DNA of 51,238 nucleotides from a bacterium (lineage in GTDB: Bacteria; CLD3; SB21). The translations under genes were made by a program, and so were the position numbers. Shown here piece by piece: positions 6,622 through 51,238 of this stretch; the first letter of the stretch is position 1, and every line of letters starts with the position of its first letter. The notes beneath the pieces are model-generated. The model ran no database searches and had not been told where the DNA came from. It worked only from the letters and a program-made list of their open reading frames with translations. Location: positions 1 to 51,238 of the forward strand of contig JANNSF010000175.1 in NCBI GenBank assembly GCA_031402315.1, given 5' to 3'.

Positions 6622-6746
6622 TGTCTGCGTACCGCTTCTGGTATGCTGTCACGAAAAAGGTTGTTTATTATGCAGAAAATAATATCGCGCCGAAGAAAAT
6701 GCGCTATGGAGTTTGATTTTTATTAAACCGTAAACACTAAACCATT

Positions 6747-11861: not shown

Positions 11862-12033
11862 GAAAGATGCACCTGATTTATATTTGTCAAAACTATCAAT
11901 TTTATGATATGAAGGCAATTGAATATGAGGAGCACTATTGTGGTCCATGCCTTTGCCTTTGGACTGCCAATCTTATTGACAGTTGTGGAATACTGTTCTA
12001 AGTTTAGCCTACGCATTTATAATTCATTTGACC

Positions 12034-15000
12034 ATGACGCTATCTTTTTTTCATCACAAGCTTCTGTTGCGTTTTATACTAAAAAATTTTTTTATAGTTG
12101 TCGGATTAACATCGCAGTCCCCCTCCCACGCACAGGATTCCGAACGATCAATTTCCCAATATGTTCACGACGTCTGGACGGCCGAACAGGGGCTTCCGCA
12201 AAACACTGTTTTCTCCATCGTTCAATCACGTGAAGGCTATATCTGGTTCGGTACGTTTGAAGGTCTCGTGCGATTTGACGGACTGCGATTCACAATATTT
12301 GATCATTCCAATACGCCGGAAATGACCGACAACTGGATCACGGCGCTTTACGAAGATCGTGACGGCCGTCTGTGGATAGGAGGCGGATCGGATCGTGCAT
12401 ATACGCCCAATAGCAGTAACGTCGGCATGCTGCTTATGCTCCAGAATGGTAAATTCACATCCTACGGAATCCGTGATGGTCTGTCTAATTCTTTCATCAA
12501 TGCGATCACTGAAGACAAGGATGGCCACTTGTGGATTGGCACTCGCAATGGCTTACTTCTGTTTAATCCATCCCTTTCTGCTACTCCGAAATTTACCGCA
12601 TATTTTGCGAAAGACGGCCTACCCCATAACTATGTCTCATCTCTTTGCCCGGACCGGACCGGGTCGCTTTGGATAGGAACATTAGGCGGGATATCAGAAG
12701 TTGAAATGTCTGTGGATGGAAAAATAAATTTTCGATCGTCTTACTTTTCCGGACCAACTGCAATCCAGATTCACGCGCTGATGCAGGACGACTCTGGGAG
12801 CCTGTGGGTTGGATCGAACAAGGGCCTTTTTAGAATTTCTCGGGACACAAGAACGGTGAGCTACACCGTAAAAAACGGACTGTCTCATAACGTTGTAACT
12901 TCTCTAATGAAGGATGTTTCAGGAAGCGTTTGGATTGGAACGTATGGAGGCGGTATTAATCGGCTCAATCCTAAAGACCCTCGCGAAACATTCTCCGTTT
13001 ATGGAATGAAGGAGGGGTTAAGCGAAAATATTATCCACTGTATATTTGAAGACCGCGAAGGAGGTATTTGGATTGGAACCCGAACCGGAGGACTCAATCG
13101 ATTGCGTATTGGAAAGATGATTACCTATAATAAAAAGAGCGGCATGTCCGGGGACGAGGTCAATACTCTTATCGAAGATTCCAAGGGTATCCTGTGGTTT
13201 GGAAATTACAACGAAGGAGGACTCAATCGATTAGACAATGGCCAATTTAGTGTCCTCACCGTCACGAATGGAATGGCCGATAATAATATTCGTTCCCTCT
13301 GCGAAAGCAGTGACGGCGGCTTGTGGATAGGCACTATTACTTCAGGGCTAAATTATTACAAGAACGGAAAATTCAAAACGTACACGACCAAAGACGGCTT
13401 GGGTAGTAATAGTATTGCGTCGATTTTTGAGGACGAAGGCCGAACCTGGATAGGTACAAATAATGGTCTAAATCTTATTGAGAATGGTCGCTTTTCGCTG
13501 TTCAAAACAAAGGACGGACTATGCAGTGACCTTATTAGAATTCTCTATAAAGATCGGAATGGCCGACTATGGATCGGAACGAATGCCGGATTAAGCCTGT
13601 TGCACCATGGAAAACTCTATTGTTTTAATACGACGAATGGACTATCGGCGAATTTAATTCGCAGTATCTACGAAGATCAGGACGGCGCCATTTGGATTGG
13701 GACGCAAGGCGGCGGACTTAATAGGATTAGGCCCGACAGCGCGTTTGCGAGTGATCCCTCCTCCCTCCGAAAAGAGCAAATAACTTCCTATACAGTGCGT
13801 GATGGACTATTTGATAATAGTGTCTTTTCTATCCTGGATGATGATTTGGGTTATTTTTGGATGAGTTGTAATAAAGGAATCTATCGGGTTAGTAAACAAC
13901 AATTAAAAGACTATGACGAACGAAAAATAGCAGGATTACAATGCACGGTCTATGGCACAGCCGATGGTATGGTCAATCAGGAGTGTAATAGCCTGGCATG
14001 GAAAGCGCGCAACGGCTGGCTTTGGTTTCCTACCGTCAAAGGCGCCGTAGCTGTTGATCCGAAAAACATCAAGATCAACACTATCCCGCCGCCGGTCGTC
14101 ATTGAAAAAATCGTAATCGATGGAGAAATGTTTAAGCCGAGTGACAACATTGTCATTCCTGCGGGAAAAAATAATGTCGAATTCCATTTCACCGGCTTGA
14201 GTTTTTCTGCAACGGAAAAAGTGCAATTCAAATATAGGTTGGAAGGATTTGACGACGACTGGATCTCAGCCCAAACGCGGCGGGTAGCCTATTATACCAA
14301 AATTACGGACGGTAGCCACATATTCCATGTCACGGCCTGCAATCAAGATGGTGTTTGGAATGAAATCGGCACGTCCGTCAAAGTAAGCGTACTGCCGCCG
14401 TTTTGGAAAGCCCGATGGTTTCAGACACTGCTCGTGCTCACACTGATCGGAAGCGCATTTATGATCTATACGATTCGAATCCGATCGATAGAGCTTGAAA
14501 AAATAAAACTTCAGAAGCTTGTCAATCAGCGCACTCAGGAATTGCAAAATCAGACACACCGGTTGGAGGGCGCCTTGAAGCAACTCAGCGGTGCCCAAGT
14601 TCAGCTTGTTCAATCTGAGAAGATGGCATCTCTGGGCCAGATGGTTGCCGGAATTGCGCATGAAATTAATAATCCACTGTCCTTCATCTACGGCAATCTT
14701 CAATTTATGGAACACGCGTTTAAAAAATTTGAAGCGAAGGAAGCCTCCATGTCCGATGTCTTAGATGCTCTGAACGGTTCCTTGAACGGCAGTACCCGCA
14801 TTAAACAAATCGTGGAGAAGTTGAAGAGTTTTTCAAACACGGATCAGGCTGTCATTAAAGAAACTTTGATCAATAAGGATCTGGAGGCCATTCTGGATCT
14901 TTTTGTGATGCATGAAGAACACCTGGTGATCGAAACTAAATTTGACAAACAACTGGACACCGTCAAAACATGTCATAATGTAGCCAATATCAATCGTTGT

Positions 15001-15342
15001 TTTTACAATGTGCTCCGTAATTCAATACAAGCCATTCGCGAGGCCGAGTCAACGGGTAAACTCGAGGTCGGTGGTGGCAAGATAGTGATCACGACGGCTT
15101 TGGTGGATCGGCATTGGAGCGTAAGTATATTGGATAATGGAATTGGTATCGCACCCGAAATTATAGACAAAATTTTCGATCCGTTCTTTACAACACGCAC
15201 GGTTGGTCGGGGAGAAGGGCTTGGTCTATCGGAAGTTTACGGTATTATAAAAACTCACGGAGGCCGGATTGATGCCGACAGTAAGCCCGGAAAGGGGACG
15301 GAGATCAGCATGACAGTTCCATTGACAGTGACTGGGAGTTAA
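12034..15342 (+). CDS. Sensor histidine kinase with periplasmic two-component-regulator-propeller repeats and a Y_Y_Y domain; no receiver domain
   Basis: Many Reg_prop-type repeats (GLP.N.V.SI..D..G.IWIGT..GL.R). Y_Y_Y region FKYRLEGFDDDW. One TM helix (WFQTLLVLTLIGSAFMIYTI). H-box AGIAHEINNPL. HATPase motifs DNGIGI and GEGLGLS. The start is set at the ATG at 12034, and the ORF is open from 11983. Confidence 0.85.
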   Translation: MTLSFFHHKLLLRFILKNFFIVVGLTSQSPSHAQDSERSISQYVHDVWTAEQGLPQNTVFSIVQSREGYIWFGTFEGLVRFDGLRFTIFDHSNTPEMTDNWITALYEDRDGRLWIGGGSDRAYTPNSSNVGMLLMLQNGKFTSYGIRDGLSNSFINAITEDKDGHLWIGTRNGLLLFNPSLSATPKFTAYFAKDGLPHNYVSSLCPDRTGSLWIGTLGGISEVEMSVDGKINFRSSYFSGPTAIQIHALMQDDSGSLWVGSNKGLFRISRDTRTVSYTVKNGLSHNVVTSLMKDVSGSVWIGTYGGGINRLNPKDPRETFSVYGMKEGLSENIIHCIFEDREGGIWIGTRTGGLNRLRIGKMITYNKKSGMSGDEVNTLIEDSKGILWFGNYNEGGLNRLDNGQFSVLTVTNGMADNNIRSLCESSDGGLWIGTITSGLNYYKNGKFKTYTTKDGLGSNSIASIFEDEGRTWIGTNNGLNLIENGRFSLFKTKDGLCSDLIRILYKDRNGRLWIGTNAGLSLLHHGKLYCFNTTNGLSANLIRSIYEDQDGAIWIGTQGGGLNRIRPDSAFASDPSSLRKEQITSYTVRDGLFDNSVFSILDDDLGYFWMSCNKGIYRVSKQQLKDYDERKIAGLQCTVYGTADGMVNQECNSLAWKARNGWLWFPTVKGAVAVDPKNIKINTIPPPVVIEKIVIDGEMFKPSDNIVIPAGKNNVEFHFTGLSFSATEKVQFKYRLEGFDDDWISAQTRRVAYYTKITDGSHIFHVTACNQDGVWNEIGTSVKVSVLPPFWKARWFQTLLVLTLIGSAFMIYTIRIRSIELEKIKLQKLVNQRTQELQNQTHRLEGALKQLSGAQVQLVQSEKMASLGQMVAGIAHEINNPLSFIYGNLQFMEHAFKKFEAKEASMSDVLDALNGSLNGSTRIKQIVEKLKSFSNTDQAVIKETLINKDLEAILDLFVMHEEHLVIETKFDKQLDTVKTCHNVANINRCFYNVLRNSIQAIREAESTGKLEVGGGKIVITTALVDRHWSVSILDNGIGIAPEIIDKIFDPFFTTRTVGRGEGLGLSEVYGIIKTHGGRIDADSKPGKGTEISMTVPLTVTGS

Positions 15343-15383
15343 TTTTTCAAACATTTTTCATTTTTTTTCGTTAGAATTGCAAT

Positions 15384-16460
15384 ATGAAGAAAATTCTGAA
15401 GCCCGTTCTGATCCTCTCGATGGTGTCCTTTTTTGTTTGGCTCACGTACTCCCGCATCACATCCGGGCAAGCCCAATCTTTTCAAGCGGCCAGCAACCGT
15501 CCTTCGCCCGTAAAAGCGATGATTGCGAGAACGACGACTCTGGATAATAAACTGGAAGCGATCGGCTCCATCCTTGCCAACGAAGAAGTTGAATTAAAAA
15601 GCGAGATCACCGGTCGTGTTCAAAAGATTTATTTTAACGAAGGGCGTAGCGTTCGGCAAGGGGAACTGCTTGTGAAAATTAATGATGCCGAATTGCAGGC
15701 ACAACTCGCACGCTCAGAATCGAAAAAGAAACTTGCGGAATCACAAGAGGCGCGCCAACGAATGCTCTCTGAAAAAAGCGTCATCAGCCAAAACGAATAC
15801 GATATTGCACTGAATGAGCTGACGGTTGTAAAAGCGGATATTGAAGTCATCAAAGCTCAAATCGCCAAGACGGAAATCCGTGCTCCCTTTGACGGCATGA
15901 TCGGACTCAAATATATATCCGAGGGTAGCTACATTGCACCTACCAATCGAATCGCAAGTCTGCAAAATCGCAATTCCGTAAAAATTGACTTTACAATTCC
16001 TGAGAAATATTCGGCCGCTGTAAAAATCGGTGATCTCATCGAATTTACCGTCGAAGGGCAGCAACAAATATTTAAAGGAAAGGTTTACGCGATCGAACCG
16101 AAAATCGATCCCGTAACTCGTAGTTTGCCGCTTCGGGCTATGGCAACGGCCGATATCAAGATACTACCGGGCGCATTTGCCAATATCTCGCTCTACATGA
16201 GTGAACAACCCAAGGCGCTCATGATACCTACACAAGCTTTGATTCCGGAACTCAAAGGTCAACGTGTTTTTATTTACCAAGCCGGAAGAGCGATGTCTCA
16301 GAAAGTGAAAACGGGGATTCGCACGAGCGATCTCGTTCAGATAACGGATGGCCTCAAAGCCGGCGATACGGTGATCGTCTCCGGCACCATGCAGCTGCGT
16401 CACAATATGCCGATTCAAATCGAGTCCTTTGTTCAATCCACGCGCGACGTTCTTCCGTAA
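15384..16460 (+). CDS. Efflux RND transporter periplasmic adaptor (membrane fusion protein)
   Basis: 358 aa with a signal anchor, a coiled-coil hairpin (AELQAQLARSESKKKLAESQEARQR) and lipoyl/beta-barrel segments typical of the HlyD/AcrA family. It lies directly upstream of the RND permease. Confidence 0.9.
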   Translation: MKKILKPVLILSMVSFFVWLTYSRITSGQAQSFQAASNRPSPVKAMIARTTTLDNKLEAIGSILANEEVELKSEITGRVQKIYFNEGRSVRQGELLVKINDAELQAQLARSESKKKLAESQEARQRMLSEKSVISQNEYDIALNELTVVKADIEVIKAQIAKTEIRAPFDGMIGLKYISEGSYIAPTNRIASLQNRNSVKIDFTIPEKYSAAVKIGDLIEFTVEGQQQIFKGKVYAIEPKIDPVTRSLPLRAMATADIKILPGAFANISLYMSEQPKALMIPTQALIPELKGQRVFIYQAGRAMSQKVKTGIRTSDLVQITDGLKAGDTVIVSGTMQLRHNMPIQIESFVQSTRDVLP

Positions 16461-16490
16461 AACGTTTCGATCGTTAGCGAAAGCTTTGCC

Positions 16491-19400
16491 ATGAGCCTTT
16501 CAGAAACCTGCATCCGCCGTCCCGTTCTAGCGATAGTGCTCAATCTGGGAATTATTCTGTTTGGGGCTATCGGATTCACTTTCCTCGGCGTCCGGGAATA
16601 CCCTTCGATTGATCCGCCGGTCATTACCGTTCGAACGAGTTATACCGGTGCCAATGCCGATGTCATTGAGTCGCAAATCACGGAACCTCTAGAAAAGTCA
16701 ATCAATGGTATAGCCGGCATTCGACTCATATCCTCCGCGAGCAATCAAGGTTCCAGCAACATAACCGTCGAATTTAATCTCGAAATTGATCTCGAGACCG
16801 CGGCGAATGATGTGCGTGATAAGGTTTCTCAAGCGCTGCGCCAATTGCCCCAAGACATTGACGCCCCTCCGGTCGTTACCAAGGCCGATGCTAATTCGGA
16901 CGCCATCATTTCAATGACTGTTCAAAGCGACATTCGAAACATTCTTGAATTGAGTGATTTTGCTGAAAATTTTATTGGCGAACGCCTTCAAACTATTCCC
17001 GGCGTTAGTTCCGTTCAAATATGGGGTCAGAAACGTTATGCGATGAGGATCTGGATGGATCCTGAAAAACTTTCTTCGTATCAGTTGTCACCTCTTGACG
17101 TGCGGTCCGCGCTAGACCGGGAGAATGTCGACGCCCCAAGCGGAAAAATTTATGGTGATCAGACCGAACTCTCGATTCGCACCAAAGGACGACTGACGAC
17201 CGAAGAAGAGTTTAATAATCTTATTATTTCGTCCACCGGGCAACGGACCATACGCCTCAAAGACATTGGCTACGCAATTCTCGGCCCGGAAAATGAGGAA
17301 ACCGTTTTGAAGCAGTCCGGCCAACCAATGGTAGGCGTGGCACTCATTCCCCAACCGGGCTCCAATTACGTGGAGATCGCTGAGGAATTTTATAAGCGCG
17401 TGGATCAATTGAAAAAGGATGTGCCCTCCGACTATCGCCTAAATCTCGCGCTGGACAATACGCGCTTCGTAAAGCGCTCGATAAAGGAAGTTGAAGAAAC
17501 TCTTCTTATTGCGGTCGCGCTCGTGGTGCTCATTGTATTTCTGTTCTTCCGGGATTGGGTTGTCGCGATACGACCTCTTATCGATATACCCGTTTCCCTT
17601 ATTGGGGCTTTTTTCATCATGTACATCGCCGATTTTTCTGTAAATATCCTAACCCTACTGGCGATTGTTTTGGCGACCGGTCTGGTCGTGGACGATGGCA
17701 TCGTCGTGACCGAAAATATATTTAAAAAAATCGAGAACGGTCTATCCCCGATGGAAGCAGCTTTTAAGGGATCGCGCGAGATATTTTTTGCGGTCATCTC
17801 CACGTCGATCACCCTGGCGGCGGTGTTTTTACCGGTTATCTTCTTACAAGGATTCGTCGGGCGTTTATTTAGGGAATTTGGTGTCGTGATTGCAGGCGCG
17901 GTTTTGATTTCCGCTTTTGTATCATTGACACTTACGCCCATGCTCAGTTCACGCATGTTTAGAAAGAATAAGAAACATACGCGGTTTTATGAAATGACCG
18001 AGCCTTTTTTTGTCTATATGACCGATGCCTATCGGCGTTCTCTTGAAAAATTTATTTCCAGAAAATTTATCTCCATAGGCATTGTCGTTGCCGCCATTGT
18101 TTTGATTTTCGTGGTTGGTGCTTTCTTACCGTCCGAATTAGCGCCATTAGAAGATCGGAGTTTAATTCGGCTCTCCGTTACGGCCCCCGAAGGGGCATCG
18201 TTTGACTACACGGATCGATTCCTAAATGAAATTGTAGCACTGGTAAATGACTCCATTCCTGAGAAGAGGATTTTTCTGACGGTCACTGCGCCCGGCTTTG
18301 CCGGATCGGGTGCTCCCAATACCGGTTTCGGTCGCTTGGTATTGACAGAGCCTGATCAGCGCAATCGCTCGCAGCAACAAATCGCCGGCATACTAGGAGC
18401 AAAAGTCAGAAATTATCCTGACGCTCGCACGTTCATCCTTCAGGAACAGACTATTTCCGCTGGCGGTGGCGGTCGCGGCGGACTGCCTATTCAATTCGTA
18501 ATTCAGGCGCAATCGTTTGATAAATTGAAAGACGTTCTTCCAAAATTTTTGGAAGAAGTCTCAAAAGATCCAACGTTCCAGGGGTTTGACGCCAACCTGA
18601 AATTCAATCGGCCCGAACTGCAGGTTTCGATCGATCGCAATCGCGCGCGCAGCCTTGGAATTTCAATTGCCGATGTCGCCCAAACCATGCGCCTTGCATT
18701 GTCCGGTCAGCGGTTTGGCTATTTTGTGATGAATGGCAAACAATATCAGATCATAGGACAAGTCGCGCGCGAATTTCGCGACGAACCGCTTGATTTAAAG
18801 TCTCTAAATGTGCGAACGCGTGACGGACAAATGGTTCAACTGGATAATCTGGTTACTGTATCCGAGCAAAGCGGTCCTCCGCAATTGTACCATTATAATC
18901 GCTACCAGTCAGCAACCATTTCGGCCGGAATTGCGCCCGGAAAAACAATGGGCGAAGGAATTGAGGCTATGAGAGTTATTGGAAAGAAGATTCTGGATGA
19001 TACGTTCAGCACGGCTCTGGCCGGACCTTCACGTGACTATGCCGAAAGTTCATCGAATATTCTTTTCGCGTTTTTTCTTGCGTTGATATTGATCTACCTT
19101 GTTCTGGCAGCCCAGTTTGAAAGCTTTCTCGATCCGTTTATTATTATGTTGACGGTGCCTCTGGCGCTTGCGGGAGCCGTTCTATCCCTTTGGTATTTTA
19201 ACCAATCGTTGAATATTTTTAGTCAGATCGGTATGATCATGCTCATTGGTCTGGTAACTAAAAATGGAATTTTGATTGTAGAATTTGCAAATCAACTTCG
19301 TGAAAAAGGCAATTCCCTGCGAGATTCCATTCTTGAAGGCTCCACGCTTCGGCTACGACCTATCGTCATGACAACGCTGTCAACTATATTAGGGGCGCTC

Positions 19401-19604
19401 CCTATAGCTCTTGCCCTTGGCGCGGGCGCAAAAAGCCGAATTCCGATGGGTATCGTGGTGATTGGTGGATTATTGTTTTCTTTAATGCTGACCCTCTACG
19501 TTATCCCGGCCATCTACGCTTTATTAAAACGTGATAACCCGCAAGTCTTAGCGGTGAATCCGAAATCAGCAGAACATGCTGTGGTTACGACAGAGATTTC
19601 TTAA
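16491..19604 (+). CDS. Efflux RND transporter permease (AcrB/HAE1-like)
   Basis: 1,037 aa with 12-TM topology and two large periplasmic loops. The N-terminus (CIRRPVLAIVLNLGIILFG) and the VVDDGIVVTENI motif are characteristic of the family. Confidence 0.95.
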   Translation: MSLSETCIRRPVLAIVLNLGIILFGAIGFTFLGVREYPSIDPPVITVRTSYTGANADVIESQITEPLEKSINGIAGIRLISSASNQGSSNITVEFNLEIDLETAANDVRDKVSQALRQLPQDIDAPPVVTKADANSDAIISMTVQSDIRNILELSDFAENFIGERLQTIPGVSSVQIWGQKRYAMRIWMDPEKLSSYQLSPLDVRSALDRENVDAPSGKIYGDQTELSIRTKGRLTTEEEFNNLIISSTGQRTIRLKDIGYAILGPENEETVLKQSGQPMVGVALIPQPGSNYVEIAEEFYKRVDQLKKDVPSDYRLNLALDNTRFVKRSIKEVEETLLIAVALVVLIVFLFFRDWVVAIRPLIDIPVSLIGAFFIMYIADFSVNILTLLAIVLATGLVVDDGIVVTENIFKKIENGLSPMEAAFKGSREIFFAVISTSITLAAVFLPVIFLQGFVGRLFREFGVVIAGAVLISAFVSLTLTPMLSSRMFRKNKKHTRFYEMTEPFFVYMTDAYRRSLEKFISRKFISIGIVVAAIVLIFVVGAFLPSELAPLEDRSLIRLSVTAPEGASFDYTDRFLNEIVALVNDSIPEKRIFLTVTAPGFAGSGAPNTGFGRLVLTEPDQRNRSQQQIAGILGAKVRNYPDARTFILQEQTISAGGGGRGGLPIQFVIQAQSFDKLKDVLPKFLEEVSKDPTFQGFDANLKFNRPELQVSIDRNRARSLGISIADVAQTMRLALSGQRFGYFVMNGKQYQIIGQVAREFRDEPLDLKSLNVRTRDGQMVQLDNLVTVSEQSGPPQLYHYNRYQSATISAGIAPGKTMGEGIEAMRVIGKKILDDTFSTALAGPSRDYAESSSNILFAFFLALILIYLVLAAQFESFLDPFIIMLTVPLALAGAVLSLWYFNQSLNIFSQIGMIMLIGLVTKNGILIVEFANQLREKGNSLRDSILEGSTLRLRPIVMTTLSTILGALPIALALGAGAKSRIPMGIVVIGGLLFSLMLTLYVIPAIYALLKRDNPQVLAVNPKSAEHAVVTTEIS

Positions 19605-19607
19605 TAA

Positions 19608-20147
19608 CTAGGCGATCTGACTCTCACTTTTCTCATCGACGACAAAAAGGGATTGACCTTTTTCGACGTTTTTGCCCTCGCTAATATTCAATTTTTTCAG
19701 TATTCCCTTTACAGGAGATTTTATTTCATTCTCCATTTTCATGGCCTCCAAAATCATAACGCCTTGCCCCTGCTCAACAGGGCTTCCCTCTTTGAGCAGA
19801 ATCTTACTGACCAATCCTGGAATTGGCGCTTTGACATCGCCGGCTGATTTGACCTTCGTATGCCCGATATGCGATTTCATAAGATAGGTTCGCTCGTCTT
19901 CGACGTCGAATTCAAAACGGTAGCCTCTTGTAAAAACCGCACTGCGCGAGCCTTTTCGGTCAATAATGACGCGATAGGATTTGTCATTGACGAGCATGGA
20001 ATACAAGGATCCACGGCCGGCCGGTTTAAAATCCACATCAAACTTTTCTGCCATGGGACCATGACCGATCGTCATTTTTAATGAGTCGCCTTCTTCAAAA
20101 ACTTCGACTTCGTACTTTTGATTTTGATTCGTGACAATGTATTTCAT
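19608..20147 (-). CDS. Biotin/lipoyl attachment domain protein (BCCP-like biotin carrier)
   Basis: The C-terminal ~70 aa carry the biotinyl-lysine motif (ILEAMKMENEI). The N-terminal ~100 aa are of unknown type. No carboxylase partner lies adjacent. Confidence 0.7.
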   Translation of the reverse strand: MKYIVTNQNQKYEVEVFEEGDSLKMTIGHGPMAEKFDVDFKPAGRGSLYSMLVNDKSYRVIIDRKGSRSAVFTRGYRFEFDVEDERTYLMKSHIGHTKVKSAGDVKAPIPGLVSKILLKEGSPVEQGQGVMILEAMKMENEIKSPVKGILKKLNISEGKNVEKGQSLFVVDEKSESQIA

Positions 20148-20208
20148 TTGAAATTCGATTTGGATTGAATAATTTATTTCAATTCACGAGTAAAGTTAGT
20201 GAAATCTA

Positions 20209-21210
20209 ATGAAAAATCAATCTAATCCCGTCTTTCAGAATCGATACGTCTATTTTTTTAGCCTTGTTCTTCCTTTTGTCACTCTGACAGGAAACATAAT
20301 GGGCTACCCTTACTCCGGGATCGGAATATTTTTTGCTTTGGGGATTTACCCTTTACTCGATGTGCTATTGGGCGATTCGGAGGGCATGAATCTGGAATCG
20401 GGCGATCCGGATTTTTTTGATATGATTTTATATTTTCATGTTCTTTTTCAGGCTCTATGCTTTGTGTCGTTATTCTACACGACGAAAAAATCGTCAGAGT
20501 TCCCTTGGCTGTCGGTACTCTCCACCGGCATAAATTCAGGTATTTCAGGCATTGTGATTGCGCACGAATTGATTCATCGAAAGCATGTGTTGCAGCGTTA
20601 TCTTGGAATTTTTTCTTTATGGACGGTCAATTATATGCATTTTTACGTGGAACATATTCGCAGGCATCACAAAGATGTGGGTACCGATTTAGATCCGGCT
20701 TCGGCACGATACGAAGACGGATTGTTTTGGTTTTCAATAAAAACAATCCCGTCCCAGTGGTGGAGCGCCTTTACAATCATGCGTGAAAGGAGCGGGATTA
20801 TTAATCTTGTCATTGCTTTCATGTTTTTGCAACTCATTTCGAATTTTACTATTTACGTTCTGCTTGGAGAAATGGCTTTTTTGGTAGCTTTATCCCATAG
20901 TTTGTTGGCCATTCTTCTTTTGGAATTTGTTAATTATATCCGCCATTGGGGACTGCGACGCGATCCCACGGAAAGAGTTGCGGTGGCGGATAGTTGGCAG
21001 TCGAATGCGCGCTGGAGCCGTTGGACATTGATCGAATTGACCCGTCACGCCGATCATCACTATCTCGCTTCGCGAGAATATTGGAAATTGAAATTCTATG
21101 AGGAAAGCCCTTCTCTTCCGGGAGGCTACTATGCCTGTTTTTACTTAGCTCTCTGCCCGCCGTTTTGGAGAAGGATTGCCGGTAGACGTCTCCCAAAAAC
21201 CCATCATTAG
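20209..21210 (+). CDS. AlkB-like integral-membrane di-iron hydroxylase (alkane 1-monooxygenase / fatty-acid desaturase family)
   Basis: All signature boxes appear in AlkB order: HELIHR, EHIRRHH, NYIRHWG (the NYxxHYG-like box) and RHADHH. The N-terminal half is hydrophobic. Substrate unknown. Confidence 0.8.
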   Translation: MKNQSNPVFQNRYVYFFSLVLPFVTLTGNIMGYPYSGIGIFFALGIYPLLDVLLGDSEGMNLESGDPDFFDMILYFHVLFQALCFVSLFYTTKKSSEFPWLSVLSTGINSGISGIVIAHELIHRKHVLQRYLGIFSLWTVNYMHFYVEHIRRHHKDVGTDLDPASARYEDGLFWFSIKTIPSQWWSAFTIMRERSGIINLVIAFMFLQLISNFTIYVLLGEMAFLVALSHSLLAILLLEFVNYIRHWGLRRDPTERVAVADSWQSNARWSRWTLIELTRHADHHYLASREYWKLKFYEESPSLPGGYYACFYLALCPPFWRRIAGRRLPKTHH

Positions 21211-21265
21211 ACGATAGGCCTATTGACGCAGCCCCTTTGACGAGAAGGTTAGCGATTTCGTGTTC

Positions 21266-22141
21266 TTATAACTTCTCTGGAAAATACTTAAATATTGTTT
21301 TGTTGTACCACGCCTCGCAAAAGTAGAACATGCCAATGGCCAGCGCAATTCCTGCAAACACATCTACAACGTAATGGTAAAAACAATACGCGGTTGATAC
21401 CACAAGCCCTAGGATAAAAGGCAAAAACCACAAAAATAGATCACGACGATAGCGGTACGAATAAAATAGCACCAAAAGAGCAATCGCAACGTGACTGCTT
21501 GGAAATGCGGCCCCGGGTTTCTCCGCATGCTCATACAGCCAGTCCATGAAAACGACAAACGGTCCTCCATTTAGAAACCTGCCGATTCGATCTTCCAAAG
21601 GACCGCGAACCGGTATCACCAGATAGCAAAGGTAACAAATGTAAAACGTGAGTGTGATTCCAAACAGCATTCTGAAAAAATTGGCATTTCGCGATGAAAA
21701 GAGAAGAGCACCGAAAAGAATGGGAATTACGTAGTAGGAAAAATAACACAAATGAAAGAATTCATTGATCCAAAAATTGTTCCAGTGCTCATAGAGCCAG
21801 ATATTTGGATCGCGACCGAAAAGCATGAGATCCGCATTTCGGAATGCGTCGTCCCAAAATTCTTTAAAAACCAATTGATTGAGTAAGCCCGTCTCAACAA
21901 ATAACAGGGCATAGGTTAAAATGACATACCAGTGACGGATGAATCTGAAGAGGGGTTTTTCGGAATCACCAAAGTAAAATACAATTCCAACAGAAGCTGC
22001 AATAGCCATGGAATGACAAAATAGGAATATGGGCCAACCGTTCAGATCATTATGAAAGAGGGTAACCAATATCAGTATTATTGCCTGATAAACTATGAAC
22101 GCGATATCGCCCGGATTTAGATTTTTTAGAAATCTTGTCAT
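21266..22141 (-). CDS. PAP2-superfamily membrane phosphatase/phosphotransferase (sphingolipid-synthase-like)
   Basis: Multi-TM protein with PAP2 C2/C3 motifs (PSSHVAIA and YHYVVDVFAG). The start is set at the ATG at 22141, which forms an ATGA overlap with the stop of the upstream SDR gene. The ORF is open to 22171. Confidence 0.7.
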   Translation of the reverse strand: MTRFLKNLNPGDIAFIVYQAIILILVTLFHNDLNGWPIFLFCHSMAIAASVGIVFYFGDSEKPLFRFIRHWYVILTYALLFVETGLLNQLVFKEFWDDAFRNADLMLFGRDPNIWLYEHWNNFWINEFFHLCYFSYYVIPILFGALLFSSRNANFFRMLFGITLTFYICYLCYLVIPVRGPLEDRIGRFLNGGPFVVFMDWLYEHAEKPGAAFPSSHVAIALLVLFYSYRYRRDLFLWFLPFILGLVVSTAYCFYHYVVDVFAGIALAIGMFYFCEAWYNKTIFKYFPEKL

Positions 22142-45679: not shown

Positions 45680-46519
45680 TTACAATTCAAATGAATCAAA
45701 CGGGCTTTTAACTCTGGATTTAGAAGCATCCGTAATATGCGTATAAATTTCAGTAGTCCGGATCGATTGATGCCCCAATAAATCTTGAATATATCTAATG
45801 TCGGTCCCGTTTTCCAATAGGTGTGTCGCAAAACTGTGGCGAAGGGAATGAACACTCGCCTTCTTCGCTATTTTGGCGCGTTGTAGGGCTTGCTTAAAGA
45901 CCAATTGGACACTTCGTGCGGAATAGACCTCATTGTTTTGACCTTCAAACAGATAGTCTTTAGGCCGGTATGCTTCGTAGTAACTTCTTAAGAGGACCAG
46001 AAGGTTCTCAGACAGCATGACCTCTCGATCTTTCTTTCCCTTCCCGTTTTCGATACGAATCCTCATACGTCCGCTATCGATACACGCGAGCTTCAGTTGA
46101 ATACACTCCGATAGTCGCAGTCCGGCGCTATAGATCAGCGCAAGTATCGTTTTGTGCTTGAGGTTCTCGGTCAATTGAATTAGTTTTTGAATATCTTCTT
46201 TGGATAGCACATGAGGTAATTTTGATTCTGTTCTCTTGGGATAAAGATGTTTTAGATCAAACCGGATATGGAATACTTCTTTATAAAATAGTGCGATGGT
46301 TGCGACTAATTGTTTTTGATAGCTTTGAGAAATTTTTTTATGTTCAACACAGTACAAGATGTATTTTTCGATTCGATTGATGGGTATCTCCTTAGGGTCT
46401 ATACCCTTAAAATCTTTAATCAAAACAGCGATGGCACTCAGGTATGTGCGAATACTATTAGGACTGTAGCGAAGAATAATCAGGCGCTTTTCGAATTTGT
46501 CTATTTGAGGTTGAAACAT
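45680..46519 (-). CDS. Tyrosine site-specific recombinase (XerC/D-IntI-like clade, without the IntI-specific insertion)
   Basis: SAM-like N-domain (YSPNSIRTYLSAI). The catalytic residues appear in order: AGLRLSE (Arg), KGKKDREV, HSLRHSFAT (His-x-x-Arg), LLGH and EIYTH (Tyr). The tail is ..VKSPFD. The start is set at the ATG at 46519 (MFQPQIDKF); the ORF is open to 46594. Confidence 0.85.
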   Translation of the reverse strand: MFQPQIDKFEKRLIILRYSPNSIRTYLSAIAVLIKDFKGIDPKEIPINRIEKYILYCVEHKKISQSYQKQLVATIALFYKEVFHIRFDLKHLYPKRTESKLPHVLSKEDIQKLIQLTENLKHKTILALIYSAGLRLSECIQLKLACIDSGRMRIRIENGKGKKDREVMLSENLLVLLRSYYEAYRPKDYLFEGQNNEVYSARSVQLVFKQALQRAKIAKKASVHSLRHSFATHLLENGTDIRYIQDLLGHQSIRTTEIYTHITDASKSRVKSPFDSFEL

Positions 46520-46678
46520 AAAAACCTTCGTTAATCTGCCAAATTTAATACAATTAGCGAAGATAACAAAGGCAATATTAACGAAATTGCGCATAACTAG
46601 GCGTTACCAGTAATGCTATGACGACAGTGCAGACCATCAACGACAGAAAAAAAAATGAACAGACGAGCCAACGCTTCA

Positions 46679-46742
46679 GCAAAATCAAAAGAGCTGCAAC
46701 CCCACCCACAAGCCGACACAGTTGCAGCACATTTGATTTTGC
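46679..46742. repeat. Imperfect palindrome E1 (22-nt arms, 20-nt loop) in the integrase/helicase divergent intergenic region
   Basis: gcaaaatcaaaagagctgcaac (46679-46700) pairs with gttgcagcacatttgattttgc (46721-46742) at 20 of 22 positions, with two A-A mismatches. It is flanked by direct copies of CCAACGC at 46668-46674 and 46744-46750. Confidence 0.7.
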
Positions 46743-46776
46743 TCCAACGCACTATAAAATTTAGTAACCTTGTAAT

Positions 46777-49700
46777 ATGACAGATTTAGTTTTTTTAAAA
46801 GCATTAAGGGACAAACTCAAAGGTGGTAACACACGGTCAATTCATTTGAATGTGTTGCCAGGACGGTTTGCGACACGGCTTGACTTAGCTAATCTGAATT
46901 ACATCCGACCCGACTTTGCAGAAAAATTTCTTGACCAACTTTTGACCACCGCTTGTTTTGACTTCAAAATTTCTTTTGACGGAATTGATTTAAACTCCAT
47001 TCAGTCAGACGAACAAAAGCGACTTGGACTTTTATCAAAGCGGTTAAACTCTCTCAACATTGAAAATGAGGACAACTACAAAGAACACGGAATAAAAACT
47101 TTCGGTTTTGGTTTTCCTATTCTCATAAAGCCATCAAAGCAAGACCCGAAGAAAATTATTAAAGCTCCACTTTTCATTTGGCAGTTAGAAATAATCAAGG
47201 CGACAAACAAAGTCAACACGTGGTCAATCCTTCGCAACAAGACACGAAACGAAAACGGAAAAATTATTGACGAAGAAGTTCACTCTGTTGAACTAAACGA
47301 AGTATTACTTTCATTTTTAAAGACAGATGAGAGTATTTCTATTCCTCAAATAAATGAAGACCTTTTGGAAGATGCAGTGATTGACCAAAAGGAATTGATT
47401 GAAGAATGTTACAAAGTGCTGAAAGCACTTAACACAAACGCAACGACCAGCATCAAAGAAAGTTTGCTTGCGAAATTCAAAGAACCATTAAGAAACATTC
47501 CAGAATCATCAGCTTTGGAATCAGTTTCGGGCAATATCCCTTGGATACATTTTGGCGGAGTGTTCGGATTATTCCGAACACAAAAAGAAAGTATCATCAC
47601 CGACATTGATAAAATCATTGACAAGTTTGATGAATTTGATTTTGAAAATTTGGAGGTAGAGAATTTTTCGGGAACTGCACACAGTGCAGTTGAGACCGAC
47701 CCAAGCCAACAAGAAATTCTCACGACATTAGGAATTGAGCCAAAGAAAATAATTCAGGGTCCACCCGGAACGGGAAAAAGTCAATCGCTAACAGCACTTA
47801 TCACAAATGCTTTAGCGAACAATTTAAAATGCCTTGTTGTGTGCGAAAAGAAAACCGCACTTGATGTAATCAAAAACAATCTACACAGAGAGAACGACCA
47901 ATTAGGGGCATTGGCAGCAGTTGTTGAGGACATTAACAAAGATCGAGACGGAATAGTAAATTCTGTTCGTGACCGATTGGGCAACCTTTCACAATACGCA
48001 AGTTTCAATCAAACGAATTACACAACAGTTCGGGAAACAGTTGAAGTAAAAGCAGCAGAACTAAACCACCAACACAAACAACTTGACAAGAAAATTTATT
48101 TAGGCAAGTCGTGGACTGAATTAGTTGGTGAGTTTTTGAAACGACAAAAGGTTGCGGACTTTGAAACATTGAAACCGAAACTTGATTACAAGCAATTCAA
48201 GTTTCAAGAAGATGAAAAAGAACTTGCTGAAATCGTCAGCAGAATAAAAACAGCAAAGAAACTTTACGCTGATGTAAAGCGGCTTGACCATCCACTTGAA
48301 ATTTTAAGTGATGCAATTTTCAAAGAAGATAATCCGAGAGCCATTCAACTAAAGTTGGAAGAACTCTCAAAGGAGACAGCCAAACAACTTGAAGAAGTAA
48401 AAGCAGAACTGCAAAAAGAAATAACAGAATACCAAAAGTGGCTTGACAGCCACTTTGGTGAATATTATTTTGCAGTCAAGCAGCAAATCACCAACTACAA
48501 AGATTTTGTTGTTTCTAATCACGAACAGTTCGGAGAATTGTTTTTTAAGAATGACGGTTTTACAAAATTCCGAATACAAACGTTGAGTATTGTTTCCAAG
48601 CGTTACAAAATGCTGAAAGGAAACAGAATTACTTTAGTCAATCAGGTTGCAGAAATAAAGCAGGTTCATCAAACGCTAAAATATTTTGAACACAGTTACA
48701 TTGAAGGCAACCACACACCTACTCTCAAAGTTTTCGTTGACAACATTGATAAGTTAAGCGACCACACAGAAGAATGGTTTAAGAACAACGAAAAAGTTAA
48801 ACAAGATTATTTGCAAAACTTTTCTTCAAATTATTTGCATCCGCTTTTCACAGACAAAACAAGTTTGCAAAACACAGAGAAAAATTTTGAACAAATCATT
48901 TCTAATATCAATCAAGAGAAACTTTTAAGACGGACTATTTCTGACACAACAAATCACAATCAGAAAATTTCCGAAACGGAAATTTTACAAACAGAAATGA
49001 AGTCCATTTCTGCAAACCTTGAAGATTTCAGAGAGTATTTTGATTGGAGAAAGTTCTACATTGAACTTACTCCATTGCAACGGACAGTTGTAAGGTCAAT
49101 CATTGAAATCAATTGCAAGAATTGGGAAACAACTTTTGAAAGTTGGTATTACCATTGGTTGCTTGCAATTGCAGAAAGCAATTTGAAAGGTTTGCCGAAA
49201 AGTGATGACAAGATTGTTGAATTGGTTGAATCAAAAGAGCAACTGAAAAAATTCCAAATCAAAAGCATTATAAATAATTGGTCAGTCCGACAATTGCAGT
49301 CAGCAAAGAGAGCACAGACACAAGGAGTAAATCCAATTAGCTTATTCAACAAACGGGGAAGCAGAGGAGAACGAAGAAACTCTTTGAGAAAAATTATCAC
49401 AACAGATTTTCAACTGTTCACTGATTTTTTTCCAGTAGTAATGTTAAGCCCGACAGTTTGCAGTTCTGTAATTCCATTAGCCGAAGGAATTTTTGATGTC
49501 GTGATTTTTGACGAGGCAAGTCAGTTGAGATTAGAAGATACCTTTCCTGCATTGCTTAGAGGAAAAATAAAAGTTGTTTCAGGCGACAGCCAACAAATGC
49601 CACCGTCAAACTTCTTTCAAGGCGGAACAGCTTTGCTAAGTCCGACAGAAGAAGATTACGATGAAGAACAAACAGCAAGTGAATCACAAACACCATCATC

Positions 49701-51159
49701 AAATCGTAATGCAAACAATTCTCTTGACCTTGCAGACAGCGAATCGCTTTTGGTTTATGCAGAGAACTGCAATTACAAGCAATCCTATTTGAAGGTTCAC
49801 TACCGTTCACAGCATCCACACTTGATTGACTTTTCTAATCATGCTTTTTATGGCAAGCGACTTATTCCAATGCCAGCGAAACAGGAATACAAACCAATTC
49901 AGTTTATTGAAGTGAACGGACTTTACGAAGACCAAGTAAACAGAGACGAAGCAAGACAAGTAGTTGACATTTTACTAAATCACATCAAGCCATTTAAGAA
50001 TGGAAAATATCCGTCAGTTGGTGTAGCAACTTTCAATTTGTATCAGCGTAATTTAATCCTTGAAGAAATCACAAAGGCAAGACAACAGAAACCCGAATAC
50101 GATAAAAAGATTGCGGACTTAGGTTCTGATTTGTTCGTGAAAAATTTAGAGAATATTCAAGGTGATGAAAGAGACATCATAATTATCTCAACAACTTTTG
50201 GAAAGAAAGCAGACGGTTCTTTTCGCCAATCGTTTGGACCGATTTTGCAACGCAACGGCTACAAACTTTTGAATGTAATTGTAACAAGAGCAAAGTATAA
50301 AGTTTTTGTATGCACTTCTATTCCGCAAGAGCATTATAACTCTTATCCAGTTCTGTTACAGCAAATGAAGAATAATGGCAGAGCCATTTTCTATTCTTAT
50401 TTGGCTTATGCCAAATCGGTAAGTGAAAATAATCTTGAAACAAAAGAATCGTTGCTAAAGCAACTCTATGAAAATTGCGAATCAAAAACTTTTGAAATCG
50501 ACCATGATGTTTACGGTTCGGAATCTCCATTTGAAGAAGAAGTTTATTACCGACTTGCTGAAAAAATTGGACAAGACCGTTTGCAACAGCAATATAAAAT
50601 CGGTGGTTTCAGAATTGATTTAATTGTGAAATCAAAAGTTACAGGCAAACCAATCATTGCTATTGAATGTGACGGAGCAAAGTATCACAGCAGCAATGAA
50701 GCGTATGCTTGGGATATGTTCAGACAATCACGACTTGAAGAACAGGGTTTTACTTTTTACAGAATATGGTCAACTAATTGGTGGTATTCAGTAGAGAAGG
50801 AATTGAAAAAAGTTGTTGCGTTTATTTCACAAGTTGACAAAGAAGAAAAGCAAGAAGATATTCTTCCACTTGACGAAGTTTTGAAAGTGAATGAAATTGT
50901 TCCAATCACTTTGCGACCAGAGACGAAAAGAAAGGTTTCGTTTGCTTCAACTGTTACAGTAAAGAATCCCGAAGGGAAAATTTTGAAAGTAAAATTTAGC
51001 AAGACACAAGCAACACAAAATGTAAAACCCGACAGCAACGGAATGATTACAGTTTATGAGAAAGCACCTTTAGCAGTTGCGATTATGAATAGAACAGAAG
51101 GCGAAGCATGTCAGTTGGGAATGTTAGAACTCTATTATGAAATATTGAAAGTAGAATGA
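46777..51159 (+). CDS. Giant DUF4011 / Upf1-like SF1 helicase fused to a DUF559 (Vsr/PD-(D/E)xK-like) nuclease domain and a Gre-like C-terminal tail
   Basis: Walker A GPPGTGKSQ (nt 47758-47784), VIFDEASQL (from 49501), GDSQQMPP, HYRSQH, QGDERDIIIIS and LNVIVTRAK. A ~580-aa insertion separates Walker A from the DEAS box. The nuclease-like block is FRIDLIV..IAIECDGAKYH..FYRIWSTNWW. The N-terminal ~300 aa are DUF4011-like (GIKTFGFGFPILI...APLFIWQLEI). Confidence 0.85.
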   Translation: MTDLVFLKALRDKLKGGNTRSIHLNVLPGRFATRLDLANLNYIRPDFAEKFLDQLLTTACFDFKISFDGIDLNSIQSDEQKRLGLLSKRLNSLNIENEDNYKEHGIKTFGFGFPILIKPSKQDPKKIIKAPLFIWQLEIIKATNKVNTWSILRNKTRNENGKIIDEEVHSVELNEVLLSFLKTDESISIPQINEDLLEDAVIDQKELIEECYKVLKALNTNATTSIKESLLAKFKEPLRNIPESSALESVSGNIPWIHFGGVFGLFRTQKESIITDIDKIIDKFDEFDFENLEVENFSGTAHSAVETDPSQQEILTTLGIEPKKIIQGPPGTGKSQSLTALITNALANNLKCLVVCEKKTALDVIKNNLHRENDQLGALAAVVEDINKDRDGIVNSVRDRLGNLSQYASFNQTNYTTVRETVEVKAAELNHQHKQLDKKIYLGKSWTELVGEFLKRQKVADFETLKPKLDYKQFKFQEDEKELAEIVSRIKTAKKLYADVKRLDHPLEILSDAIFKEDNPRAIQLKLEELSKETAKQLEEVKAELQKEITEYQKWLDSHFGEYYFAVKQQITNYKDFVVSNHEQFGELFFKNDGFTKFRIQTLSIVSKRYKMLKGNRITLVNQVAEIKQVHQTLKYFEHSYIEGNHTPTLKVFVDNIDKLSDHTEEWFKNNEKVKQDYLQNFSSNYLHPLFTDKTSLQNTEKNFEQIISNINQEKLLRRTISDTTNHNQKISETEILQTEMKSISANLEDFREYFDWRKFYIELTPLQRTVVRSIIEINCKNWETTFESWYYHWLLAIAESNLKGLPKSDDKIVELVESKEQLKKFQIKSIINNWSVRQLQSAKRAQTQGVNPISLFNKRGSRGERRNSLRKIITTDFQLFTDFFPVVMLSPTVCSSVIPLAEGIFDVVIFDEASQLRLEDTFPALLRGKIKVVSGDSQQMPPSNFFQGGTALLSPTEEDYDEEQTASESQTPSSNRNANNSLDLADSESLLVYAENCNYKQSYLKVHYRSQHPHLIDFSNHAFYGKRLIPMPAKQEYKPIQFIEVNGLYEDQVNRDEARQVVDILLNHIKPFKNGKYPSVGVATFNLYQRNLILEEITKARQQKPEYDKKIADLGSDLFVKNLENIQGDERDIIIISTTFGKKADGSFRQSFGPILQRNGYKLLNVIVTRAKYKVFVCTSIPQEHYNSYPVLLQQMKNNGRAIFYSYLAYAKSVSENNLETKESLLKQLYENCESKTFEIDHDVYGSESPFEEEVYYRLAEKIGQDRLQQQYKIGGFRIDLIVKSKVTGKPIIAIECDGAKYHSSNEAYAWDMFRQSRLEEQGFTFYRIWSTNWWYSVEKELKKVVAFISQVDKEEKQEDILPLDEVLKVNEIVPITLRPETKRKVSFASTVTVKNPEGKILKVKFSKTQATQNVKPDSNGMITVYEKAPLAVAIMNRTEGEACQLGMLELYYEILKVE

Positions 51160-51169
51160 CCCAACGCAT

Positions 51170-51236
51170 TTGGTGGCACATTTGTATTTTTTTCAACGCA
51201 CAGACCAAAGCTAAAAAAATCCAAAAGAGCCACCAA
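51170..51236. repeat. Imperfect palindrome E2, related to E1 but with the two arm types in swapped order, at the very end of the window
   Basis: ttggtggcacatttgtattttt (51170-51191) pairs with aaaaatccaaaagagccaccaa (51215-51236) at 19 of 22 positions. It shares GCACATTTG(T)ATTTT and AAAATC(C)AAAAGAGC with the E1 arms, including the same A-A mismatch pattern. Confidence 0.7.
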
Positions 51237-51238
51237 GC

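Follow-up and report, generated by a model that had tools for sequence, protein, structure and literature searches.

A probable integron-type platform of Bacteroidota with a Xer-like integrase and paired hairpin modules inside its large cassettes

Classical integrons combine a divergent tyrosine recombinase with a junction, next to which co-oriented and mostly promoter-less cassettes are lined up, each ending in an imperfect palindrome (the attC site) that has ..TAAC and GTTA.. ends, with crossover at G^TT (the caret marks the point of exchange). Their arrays harbor IS110-family elements and group II introns, and their cargo includes defence and resistance genes. In Bacteroidetes, IntegronFinder 2.0 found only In0 elements and one Salinibacter integron (PMC9024848). 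In Riemerella anatipestifer, aph(3')-IVb, lnu(H) and blaRATA integrate without homology after natural transformation, as units made of the gene, a short 5' untranslated region (UTR) and a 3' UTR of about 140 bp that folds in an attC-like manner (PMC13148043), and in Chryseobacterium, clusters of tetX, catB and aadS adjoin a gene named 'XerD' (PMC11194056). Here, we analyzed a bacterial contig of 51,238 nucleotides (nt) (JANNSF010000175.1 of assembly GCA_031402315.1, positions 1 to 51,238 of the forward strand, referred to as the window). In its last 5.6 kb, a Xer-like tyrosine recombinase faces away from a helicase-nuclease gene that is bracketed by two related palindromes, E1 and E2. On balance, we lean towards reading this stretch as an integron-type gene-capture platform of Bacteroidota, in which the E modules would serve as folded-DNA accessory sites. 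The integron features listed above recur in the family of loci to which the window belongs, and the two reports from Riemerella and Chryseobacterium describe pieces of this platform without naming it. The Riemerella units match the small attC-type cassettes of Weeksellaceae that belong to the platform; they differ in that the report identifies neither a recombinase nor a platform and describes the mechanism as unresolved (PMC13148043), and in that the units have no E modules.

The recombinase is encoded on the minus strand at 45680-46594 and was assigned as a Xer-like, integron-type integrase by Pfam, NCBIfam and alignment with PDB entries. Its longest open reading frame (ORF) has 304 amino acids (aa), and the gene call in the protein collection, which starts at Met26 (around 46519), has 279 aa. 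The protein has the Phage_int_SAM_4 and Phage_integrase domains of Pfam and is catalytically typical of tyrosine recombinases. It scores 211 bits with XerA_Arch of NCBIfam, for which the cut-off is 220, 204 bits with the integron integrase family TIGR02249 (cut-off 265), where the match falls into two separate stretches, and 138 with PRK15417 (cut-off 435). Its closest structural-sequence relatives are VchIntIA (2a3v) and XerA (5hxy). In the alignment with VchIntIA, residues 205-228 of the query (24 aa) stand opposite residues 180-246 of the chain (67 aa), such that the IntI-specific insertion, the additional domain near patch III, is absent from the window recombinase. As far as can be judged from its sequence, the protein hence lies outside the IntI clade as this insertion defines it. 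Its likeness to XerA, XerC and XerD (NF040815) is seen in the best full-length ungapped match, to residues 42-291 of 5hxy, and in plasmid homologs that carry the name 'site-specific tyrosine recombinase/integron integrase' given by the Prokaryotic Genome Annotation Pipeline. It differs from these proteins in scoring below their curated cut-off, as noted above, and in that its family adjoins cassette arrays rather than a dif-type chromosome-resolution site. This family counts at least 7788 proteins at an E-value of 1e-40 or lower, mostly of 274-281 aa among the matches listed, and is present on both chromosomes and plasmids.

To consider the surroundings of this family, we refer to the genomic and metagenomic loci compared with the window by L-numbers. 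A genome scan for the window recombinase yielded 80 loci with recombinases of 41-58% identity, found in Flavobacteriales, Bacteroidales, Chitinophagales and Saprospiraceae. Palindromes of the attC type were collected by BLAST and then by an iterated nhmmer model, which gave 262 sites in 110 of 208 loci; in L005, for example, two palindromes of 130-140 nt with TAAC...GTTA ends lie between small ORFs. It should be noted that the nhmmer model misses sites of about 230 nt (such as L096 90-310 and 6880-7110), so that E elements with no attC close by are fewer than counted. Of 133 sites in the vicinity of the 80 integrase homologs, 115 are located upstream and on the opposite strand, as in classical integrons, at densities of up to 10 sites in 10 kb (L021, L042). 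Ten of the 133 lie downstream on the integrase strand, all in Saprospiraceae or unclassified Bacteroidota metagenome-assembled genomes (MAGs). This arrangement (the Saprospiraceae loci L069, L072 and L079, and L057, an unclassified Bacteroidota MAG) is one difference from classical integrons. Others are the integrase itself, without the IntI insertion, below the cut-off and short, the length of the attC-type sites (about 130-230 nt) and the many multi-gene cassettes of 4-10 kb.

The strongest indication of cassette logic comes from the cassette ends. The 7 nt before the AAC of a site are, on average, complementary at 5.61 of 7 positions to the 7 nt after the previous GTT, with 46 of 104 pairs being perfect, as compared to 2.93 when the site's own following GTT is used and 2.62 for random sites. 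The inverse core thus complements the 5' end of its own cassette, as is characteristic of integron cassettes that recombine at G^TT, and the sites follow the classical cassette logic. The primary site is empty in L061 and occupied by two cassettes in L005, and in both reads CGTATATTTG(T/G)GTG^TT. An attI-type motif, CGTATATTTGKGTGTT, lies 70-120 nt upstream of most matching integrases and is found at four mismatches or fewer in 28 of 84 loci, chiefly of Chryseobacterium and Epilithonimonas. At this threshold it is not recognisable in the window, where the motif has diverged and the junction is defined by cassette-end complementarity. The family of loci thus presents the core/inverse-core rule, an attI-type primary site and a co-oriented array that adjoins the integrase. 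The window itself shows the first cassette only, and contig ends often fall on the array side of the integrase.

Two plasmids illustrate the family outside chromosomes. Plasmid NZ_CP041688.1 of Chryseobacterium sp. SNU WT5 carries the platform at 11776-22000 (L208), with the integrase followed by 5-6 attC-type matches on its strand (one marginal, E-value 0.09); the array holds an IS110-family transposase and a group II intron reverse transcriptase, both of them classical attC-targeting elements. In Acinetobacter indicus plasmid NZ_CP041297.1 (L266, 6001-8151), tet(X3) comes immediately after a truncated integrase homolog that is 50.9% identical over residues 75-304; GTTATGTGCC stands before tet(X3), and after it comes an attC-type site of which the first two-thirds, counted from the 5' end, are present (E-value 2.6e-16). 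The mobile tet(X3) thus looks like a captured cassette of the Bacteroidota platform.

The cargo of the window cassette, at 46777-51159 on the plus strand, is a protein of 1460 aa assigned by Pfam, PADLOC and NCBIfam. It joins a superfamily 1 helicase (AAA_11/AAA_12) to a C-terminal MTES_1575/DUF559 nuclease (Pfam). PADLOC gives 477 bits for PDC-S37, over residues 450-1382, and 233 bits for Hhe, and the NCBIfam scores are 463 bits for ProA (cut-off 1500) and 320 for Hhe (cut-off 2000). On this sequence evidence the protein is a candidate anti-phage protein, a relative of PDC-S37, Hhe and ProA that would not count as a member by the curated cut-offs. Many metagenomes contain homologs of 85-100% identity, frequently on contigs no longer than 4.4-6 kb. 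As none is found in the 80 integrase loci, these loci could not define the ends of the cassette, and copies of 99% identity were used instead. In these copies (L081-L083), the sequence runs ...GAGCCACCAA, then GCCAACGCA, a C/A-rich trailer of 50 nt, TACTGGTAAC, a palindrome and GTTACCA. The palindrome of L081 (14520-14668, about 150 nt) folds with a 7-bp base of GGTAAC.../...GTTACC, an A that faces AAAAC without pairing, and a second stem of 13 bp, has an asymmetric spacer, and reaches z = -4.7 on the plus strand and -5.3 on the minus strand (here and below, z is calculated against 200 shuffles for single-stranded DNA, both strands being folded). It scores 106.5 bits with the nhmmer family model, and presents the R''/R' cores, the L-type stem and the location at a cassette end that are expected of an attC site.

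The inverse core of this site, TACTGGTAA, is the exact reverse complement (7/7) of TTACCAGTA at 46604-46612 in the window, and homology between the window and both the other helicase copies and the cassettes that share its scaffold begins at G46603. These two observations place the start of the cassette at T46604, with the attI side ending at G46603 (junction G^TTACCAGTA, 46603-46612, plus strand). In circular form, the cassette would be joined at TACTGGTAAC.../GTTACCAGTA. Going by these copies, the cassette extends from 46604 to an attC site about 60-210 nt past the window end, and both E1 and E2 are internal to it. Beyond the end of the window, ...GAGCCACCAAGC, the expected order is CAACGCA, a trailer of about 50 nt, TACTGGTAAC, a palindrome of about 130 nt and GTTACCA. 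The first-pass annotation, which was made from the window alone, had called the locus integron-like, and in this it was correct: a divergent tyrosine recombinase, a junction and a discrete cassette with a defence-type helicase-nuclease are present, and relatives adjoin co-oriented arrays in many Bacteroidota. It also placed the TGA (51157-51159), ACCCAAC (51159-51165) and the two copies of CCAACGCA (46744-46751 and 51161-51168) accurately. The unit that it delimited by these copies (46744-51168), however, gives way to one that starts at 46604 and holds E1, the ORF, E2, the trailer and attC. The CCAACGCA pair is real as part of a conserved flank motif, though neither a unit boundary nor a target duplication; the two copies are the cargo-proximal flanks of E1 and E2.

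Two further observations concern the helicase copies. An IS110-family transposase gene is found just ahead of the helicase cassette, some 100 nt from its GTT, in each of four independent contigs from metagenomes (L081 8445-9806, L082 578-1939, L083 4307-5668 and L084 286-1647), and beside these genes the first bases after GTTA are unlike those of the window (GTTAGTTAG vs GTTACCAGT). A helicase of 98% identity is found in a MAG labelled Ignavibacteriales (P0004), so either the cassette crosses phylum-level boundaries or the contig was mis-binned.

E1 (46668-46752, plus strand) consists of the motif CCAACGC (46668-46674), a hairpin (46678-46743) and the 3' motif CCAACGCA (46744-46751). It is preceded by a C/A-rich leader with ACAGAC-type motifs (46604-46667), which is kept together with E1 in cassettes of unrelated cargo. 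E2 (51161-51238, plus strand) consists of the motif CCAACGCA (51161-51168), separated from the helicase stop by one base (C51160), and a hairpin (51170-51236), after which the window is cut off; of the 3' motif GCCAACGCA only the opening GC remains, as the final two bases, such that the window does end inside the element, as had been proposed. The arms of E1 (46678-46700 and 46721-46743) are of 23 nt and 91% complementary, and those of E2 (51170-51193 and 51213-51236) are of 24 nt and 88% complementary. An alignment of the arms confirmed the early observation that the palindromes are related, with swapped arm types and the same two A.A mismatches: two 9-mers are shared, which pair with these mismatches, in the order CAAAAGAGC ... 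GCACATTTG in E1 and GCACATTTG ... CAAAAGAGC in E2, and the right arm and flank of E1 recur as the left arm and loop of E2 (26 nt, 81%). E1 is a circular permutation of E2: at the base as in the loop, the motifs that come after an arm are the same, as are those that lead into one. That E1 is an inverted copy of E2 was considered and rejected, since a reverse complement would give T.T mismatches and the other order. Both elements fold far better than shuffled sequences: E1 reaches z = -6.3 (plus strand) and -6.9 (minus strand), and the complete E2 of a 99%-identical copy -3.7 and -5.2, with 0 of 200 shuffles being as good in either case. By itself, CCAACGCA is not enriched, as the window has 3 copies where 1.8 are expected, and 26 of 100 shuffles reach 3.

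To characterize the element more widely, we collected E elements by relaxed pattern matching, with a covariance model and in a single metagenome scan (at least 120 contigs). The model was built on 15 E2-type elements from loci other than the window, and scores 55.8 bits (E-value 6.5e-10) for the truncated E2 of the window and 71.6 bits for the complete copy. The family is conserved across the phylum, with at least 136 unique E2-type and 13 unique E1-type sequences. Its architecture is (G)CCAACGC, an outer stem s1 of about 5-7 bp, a 9-bp box, an inner stem s2 of 5 bp and a loop of about 20-25 nt, followed by s2', box', s1', a T-run in many elements and the motif GCCAACGC. Within one mismatch, (G)CCAACGC is present 5' of 71 and 3' of 90 of the 136 unique E2-type elements, and the loop often has one or two further copies (GCCGACACAC-AAGCCAACGC in the examples read), with at least one copy in 79 of 136 E2 loops. 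The box pairs and both A.A mismatches are invariant across the family. In s1 and s2, by contrast, each position shows three or four Watson-Crick pair types, compensatory double changes are seen in 7 of 13 pairs (first alignment), and s1 positions 1-5 are, unfiltered, 79-98% Watson-Crick with G.T at 1% or less. Watson-Crick covariation with almost no G.T speaks for a hairpin or cruciform of DNA, and not an RNA, as the object of selection. The two stem segments also assort independently, as they are shared separately: the outer stem TTGGTG/CACCAA is common to the window, L019 and L034, in which the inner stems differ, and in 26 pairs of elements 90% or more identity from box to box (over boxes, inner stem and loop) goes with unrelated outer stems and flanks (L097, L099, L125, L117, L185 and others).

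At gathering score, no Rfam family covers E1 or E2, a tRNA being the only match in the window. A scan of viral contigs for phage carriage of E gave 57 matches of broad length spread, with about 45 estimated by chance, and no evidence for such carriage. A derivation of the E box from the L box of attC was dropped, as 0 of 209 attC-type sites contain CACATTTG; one fossil attC-type site in the window reads GCACATTTGC after AAC.

When the elements are placed within cassettes, a common anatomy is obtained. In L052, L061, L034, L096 and the helicase cassette, the order is G^TT, leader, E, cargo, E, trailer and attC. E1-type elements occur only in the leader (16 matches, 13 unique sequences, most of them nearly invariant), with an attC-type site within 250 nt after 0 of 16 and before 6 of 16, while E2-type elements occur at both cassette ends. 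In cassettes with verified ends, about 84 nt separate G^TT from the beginning of the box of E in the leader. Where E follows the cargo, the stop codon of the last gene falls at the 5' motif, with a median distance of 16 nt between its end and the box (interquartile range 15-19, n = 35). Where E precedes the cargo, half of the cases have the ATG 34-70 nt downstream of the element, and in the tightest it comes 34-42 nt after the box. The presence of E is associated with cassette size: among 74 cassettes with verified ends, E is found in 0 of 52 under 2 kb, in 2 of 10 of 2-4 kb and in 10 of 12 of at least 4 kb. The leader-E1 and E2-trailer-attC modules of the window cassette recur around different cargo, the leader and E1 being homologous in L140, L207, L136, L059, L106, L152, L034, L097, L157 and L145. 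The cargo on this shared chassis includes Zorya (L140), a type III restriction-modification system (L152), a DpdF/PsyrT-like helicase (L207), a methyltransferase (L145) and a viperin-like radical S-adenosylmethionine enzyme with a glycosyltransferase (L157). Further cargo bracketed by E consists of a type ISP-like methyltransferase with a PLD nuclease, a set of restriction-modification and SIR2 genes, and a chromate-transporter operon. Read from these alignments, E1 and E2 are non-coding, cassette-internal parts of a conserved chassis (leader-E ... E-trailer-attC) that surrounds mostly anti-phage cargo in large, not small, cassettes. We know of no integron counterpart of these modules. In two helicase copies outside an intact platform, E is partly deleted (L085) or decayed (L087). 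In L052, cassettes with a LinB-like lincosamide nucleotidyltransferase and an ANT(6)-type streptomycin adenylyltransferase (minus strand, 5900-6670 and 320-1183) flank the E-bracketed cassette of the type ISP-like methyltransferase and PLD nuclease.

What could such a chassis do? The Xer-like recombinase, facing away, adjoins the junction at 46603/46604, where the first cassette begins, and the E modules may work, like attC sites, as folded DNA hairpins or cruciforms. From the strict Watson-Crick covariation, the invariant A.A mismatches (T.T on the other strand) and the repeats of (G)CCAACGC in flanks and loop, we infer a folded-DNA site. On the other strand, (G)CCAACGC reads GCGTTGG, like the crossover core of the integrase, and the E stem, of about 19-21 bp, has the length of the R-spacer-L stem of attC. 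We propose that the integrase, or a host single-strand-DNA factor, binds E as accessory sites. In a circular cassette the E modules would flank attC on both sides, like accessory arms, and might make it easier for long cassettes to undergo synapsis, to be excised or inserted, or to be handled in single-stranded form. This function of E in itself (an accessory role in synapsis, excision and insertion or single-strand handling of long cassettes) is put forward tentatively, and we hold it at below even.

Several points weigh against this reading and should be considered. The accessory-site function is one that we infer, and E is not needed for cassette mobility in general, because small cassettes do without it. 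The E motifs are oriented the 'wrong' way relative to the GTT cores of the array. The outer stem is variable, and sequence-specific cleavage inside the stem is thus unlikely. The 5' E lies in what should be the 5' UTR or promoter region of the cargo, so that a role in expression is possible. The attC site past the window end is, at the level of sequence, that of 99%-identical cassettes from other samples and not of this genome. Finally, the association with size comes partly from loci that had been chosen for containing E2, although loci selected by their integrase show the same pattern.

The alternative that survives best is that E controls expression: the 5' E would insulate or regulate, and the 3' E would terminate, so that large and potentially toxic defence operons are shielded from read-through. 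We consider this unlikely, even if it has several points in its favor. E brackets the coding part as tightly as described above, a T-run ends many E2 stems, the cargo consists mostly of defence systems, and a weak sigma-70-like match (TTGATT-16-TAAAAT) overlaps the 3' arm of E1. However, across about 136 sequences G.U-type pairs are lacking, contrary to what selection for an RNA structure would lead one to expect, and neither terminators nor insulators need an invariant 9-bp box, invariant mismatches or conserved loop motifs. The E2 of the window itself has no T-run, and no terminator-like site was called there. A terminator at the 5' end would, moreover, block expression of the cargo, the space after the 5' E is too short for a promoter, and the promoter of the Bacteroidota type (TTTG ... 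TAnnTTTG) is not conserved in E1 or E2.

More doubtful still is the possibility that E modules are secondary recombination or loading sites, where cargo is joined to a ready-made scaffold bearing attC, at the cargo-proximal (G)CCAAC, so that large cassettes are built or their cargo is swapped. Near-identical 5' modules do precede different cargo with homology ending in the 3' motif (L005 vs L061, and E1 of the window, L034 and L059), the 3' modules of unrelated cassettes are alike exactly from the 5' motif onward, and whole leader-E1 and E2-trailer-attC modules are common to cassettes of unrelated cargo. The motifs also resemble the crossover core of the integrase, and the permuted relation of E1 to E2 is what would be expected if motifs at both stem ends recombine. 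Yet, the 52 cassettes under 2 kb include no empty scaffold (leader-E-trailer-attC without cargo), covariation between the motifs of a single element is not seen, and exchange between cassettes by ordinary homologous recombination could account equally well for the shared modules. A bolder form of this idea, in which the E scaffold is an adaptor that turns large foreign DNA into cassettes by joining cargo to a pre-formed attC module at (G)CCAAC, strikes us as improbable.

E might also be a selfish miniature palindrome, akin to miniature inverted-repeat transposable elements or repetitive extragenic palindromes, that hitch-hikes at CCAACGC-type targets in the non-coding DNA of cassettes; to this we likewise assign a low probability. 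A hairpin flanked by direct repeats of 7-8 nt resembles an insertion with target duplication, and the 26 pairs with alike box-to-box parts and wholly different outer stems give the impression that a hairpin tip was inserted into a variety of small palindromes. Against this, the 5' and 3' motifs of one element differ from each other as much as those of different elements do, with no fresh duplication to be seen. A target-site duplication was rejected on the same ground as above, the lack of covariation between the two flank motifs. In addition, the positions are ordered, with one element in the leader and one abutting the stop, in large cassettes only, no transposase is associated, and the 51 kb of the window hold two copies only.

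As for the last alternative, E2 does share with attC sites a strand-oriented imperfect palindrome in the non-coding DNA of a cassette, a similar stem length, conserved positions that stay unpaired, a motif like RYYYAAC on the 5' side of the stem and a start at the stop codon. Its stems covary and fold well, but, unlike in attC sites, its central box and loop are strongly conserved in sequence. It differs in having no complementary R''/R' boxes (RYYYAAC ... GTTRRRY), in being conserved mid-stem and variable at the stem base, and in its position at both cargo ends, with the true attC after the 3' E, such that it is not the 3' boundary of the cassette. The proposal of the first-pass annotation that E2 is the attC of the helicase cassette, making the 4.4-kb unit 46744-51168 between the copies of CCAACGCA mobile, is therefore highly improbable: ACCCAAC fits RYYYAAC at the stop codon, the usual start of attC, in an integron-like locus and beside a palindrome with conserved mismatches, but the 3' flank GCCAACGCA repeats the 5' motif in direct orientation, as seen both in other copies of this cassette and in the consensus of the family, the GTTGGGT-type core expected after E2 is absent in near-identical copies, a genuine attC-type site whose inverse core matches the cassette start at 46604 follows about 60 nt on, and E also occurs in 5' leaders, the attC-type model overlapping only 1 of 160 E elements.

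Returning to E as a folded-DNA accessory site, single-strand origins of the ssoA type, single-stranded-DNA promoters of the Frpo type and the subterminal hairpins of IS200/IS605 elements are known signals made of folded single-strand DNA. E may be likened to these by its architecture, as they too are strand-specific DNA hairpins with conserved stem mismatches and conserved motifs in loop and flanks; it differs in that no HUH transposase or rolling-circle replicon is present. As a lead only, the bottom-strand loop of the complete E2 copy (L081 14420-14440; TTTAGCGTTGG / TAGCGTTGG) resembles the CS-6 motif of ssoA in containing TAGCGT. In the window, the bottom strand of the E2 loop (51194-51212) reads TAGCTTTGG where the L081 copy has TAGCGT.

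With regard to the rest of the window, the housekeeping genes upstream (pgl, tsaE, tsaB, rimI, accD and surE, by Pfam) indicate that the locus is chromosomal, and a sorting domain of the type IX secretion system, together with all relatives of the recombinase, places it in Bacteroidota. At 700-2950 on the minus strand, 45 kb from the integrase, the window also has a fossil run of cassettes. Its small ORFs (DUF4386, SnoaL-like and DUF4256) are set apart by an attC-type site of mutated core at 2932-2806 (TGGCTATAAC ... GCTATAGCC), by an isolated inverse core around 2070 (TGGCTATAAC) and by a half site (1531-1479).

We could not find the platform described as an integron class with a Xer-like integrase, nor E as a cassette-internal hairpin scaffold, in the full-text literature, the coverage of which is incomplete, so that a prior description is possible. 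If the platform is as the cassette-end statistics indicate, it would be a very common class of integrons in Bacteroidota that is unseen by standard detectors, which are expected to miss it since its integrase has no IntI signature. It carries both resistance genes (lincosamide and streptomycin nucleotidyltransferases) and complete anti-phage systems, and defence cassettes can be mined with the search tag GCACATTTG-N(33-38)-CAAAAGAGC. The E repeats explain the assembly breaks at such loci, in line with the early suggestion that assembly had broken on a repeat, as contigs do tend to end at these repeats. Were the adaptor idea true, it would offer a route for the de novo formation of cassettes, an old open question, in a phylum-wide integron class. 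The E modules show a dedicated non-coding scaffold that is common to large cassettes, and this chassis gives a handle on how integrons cope with, or build, cassettes of ten times the usual size.

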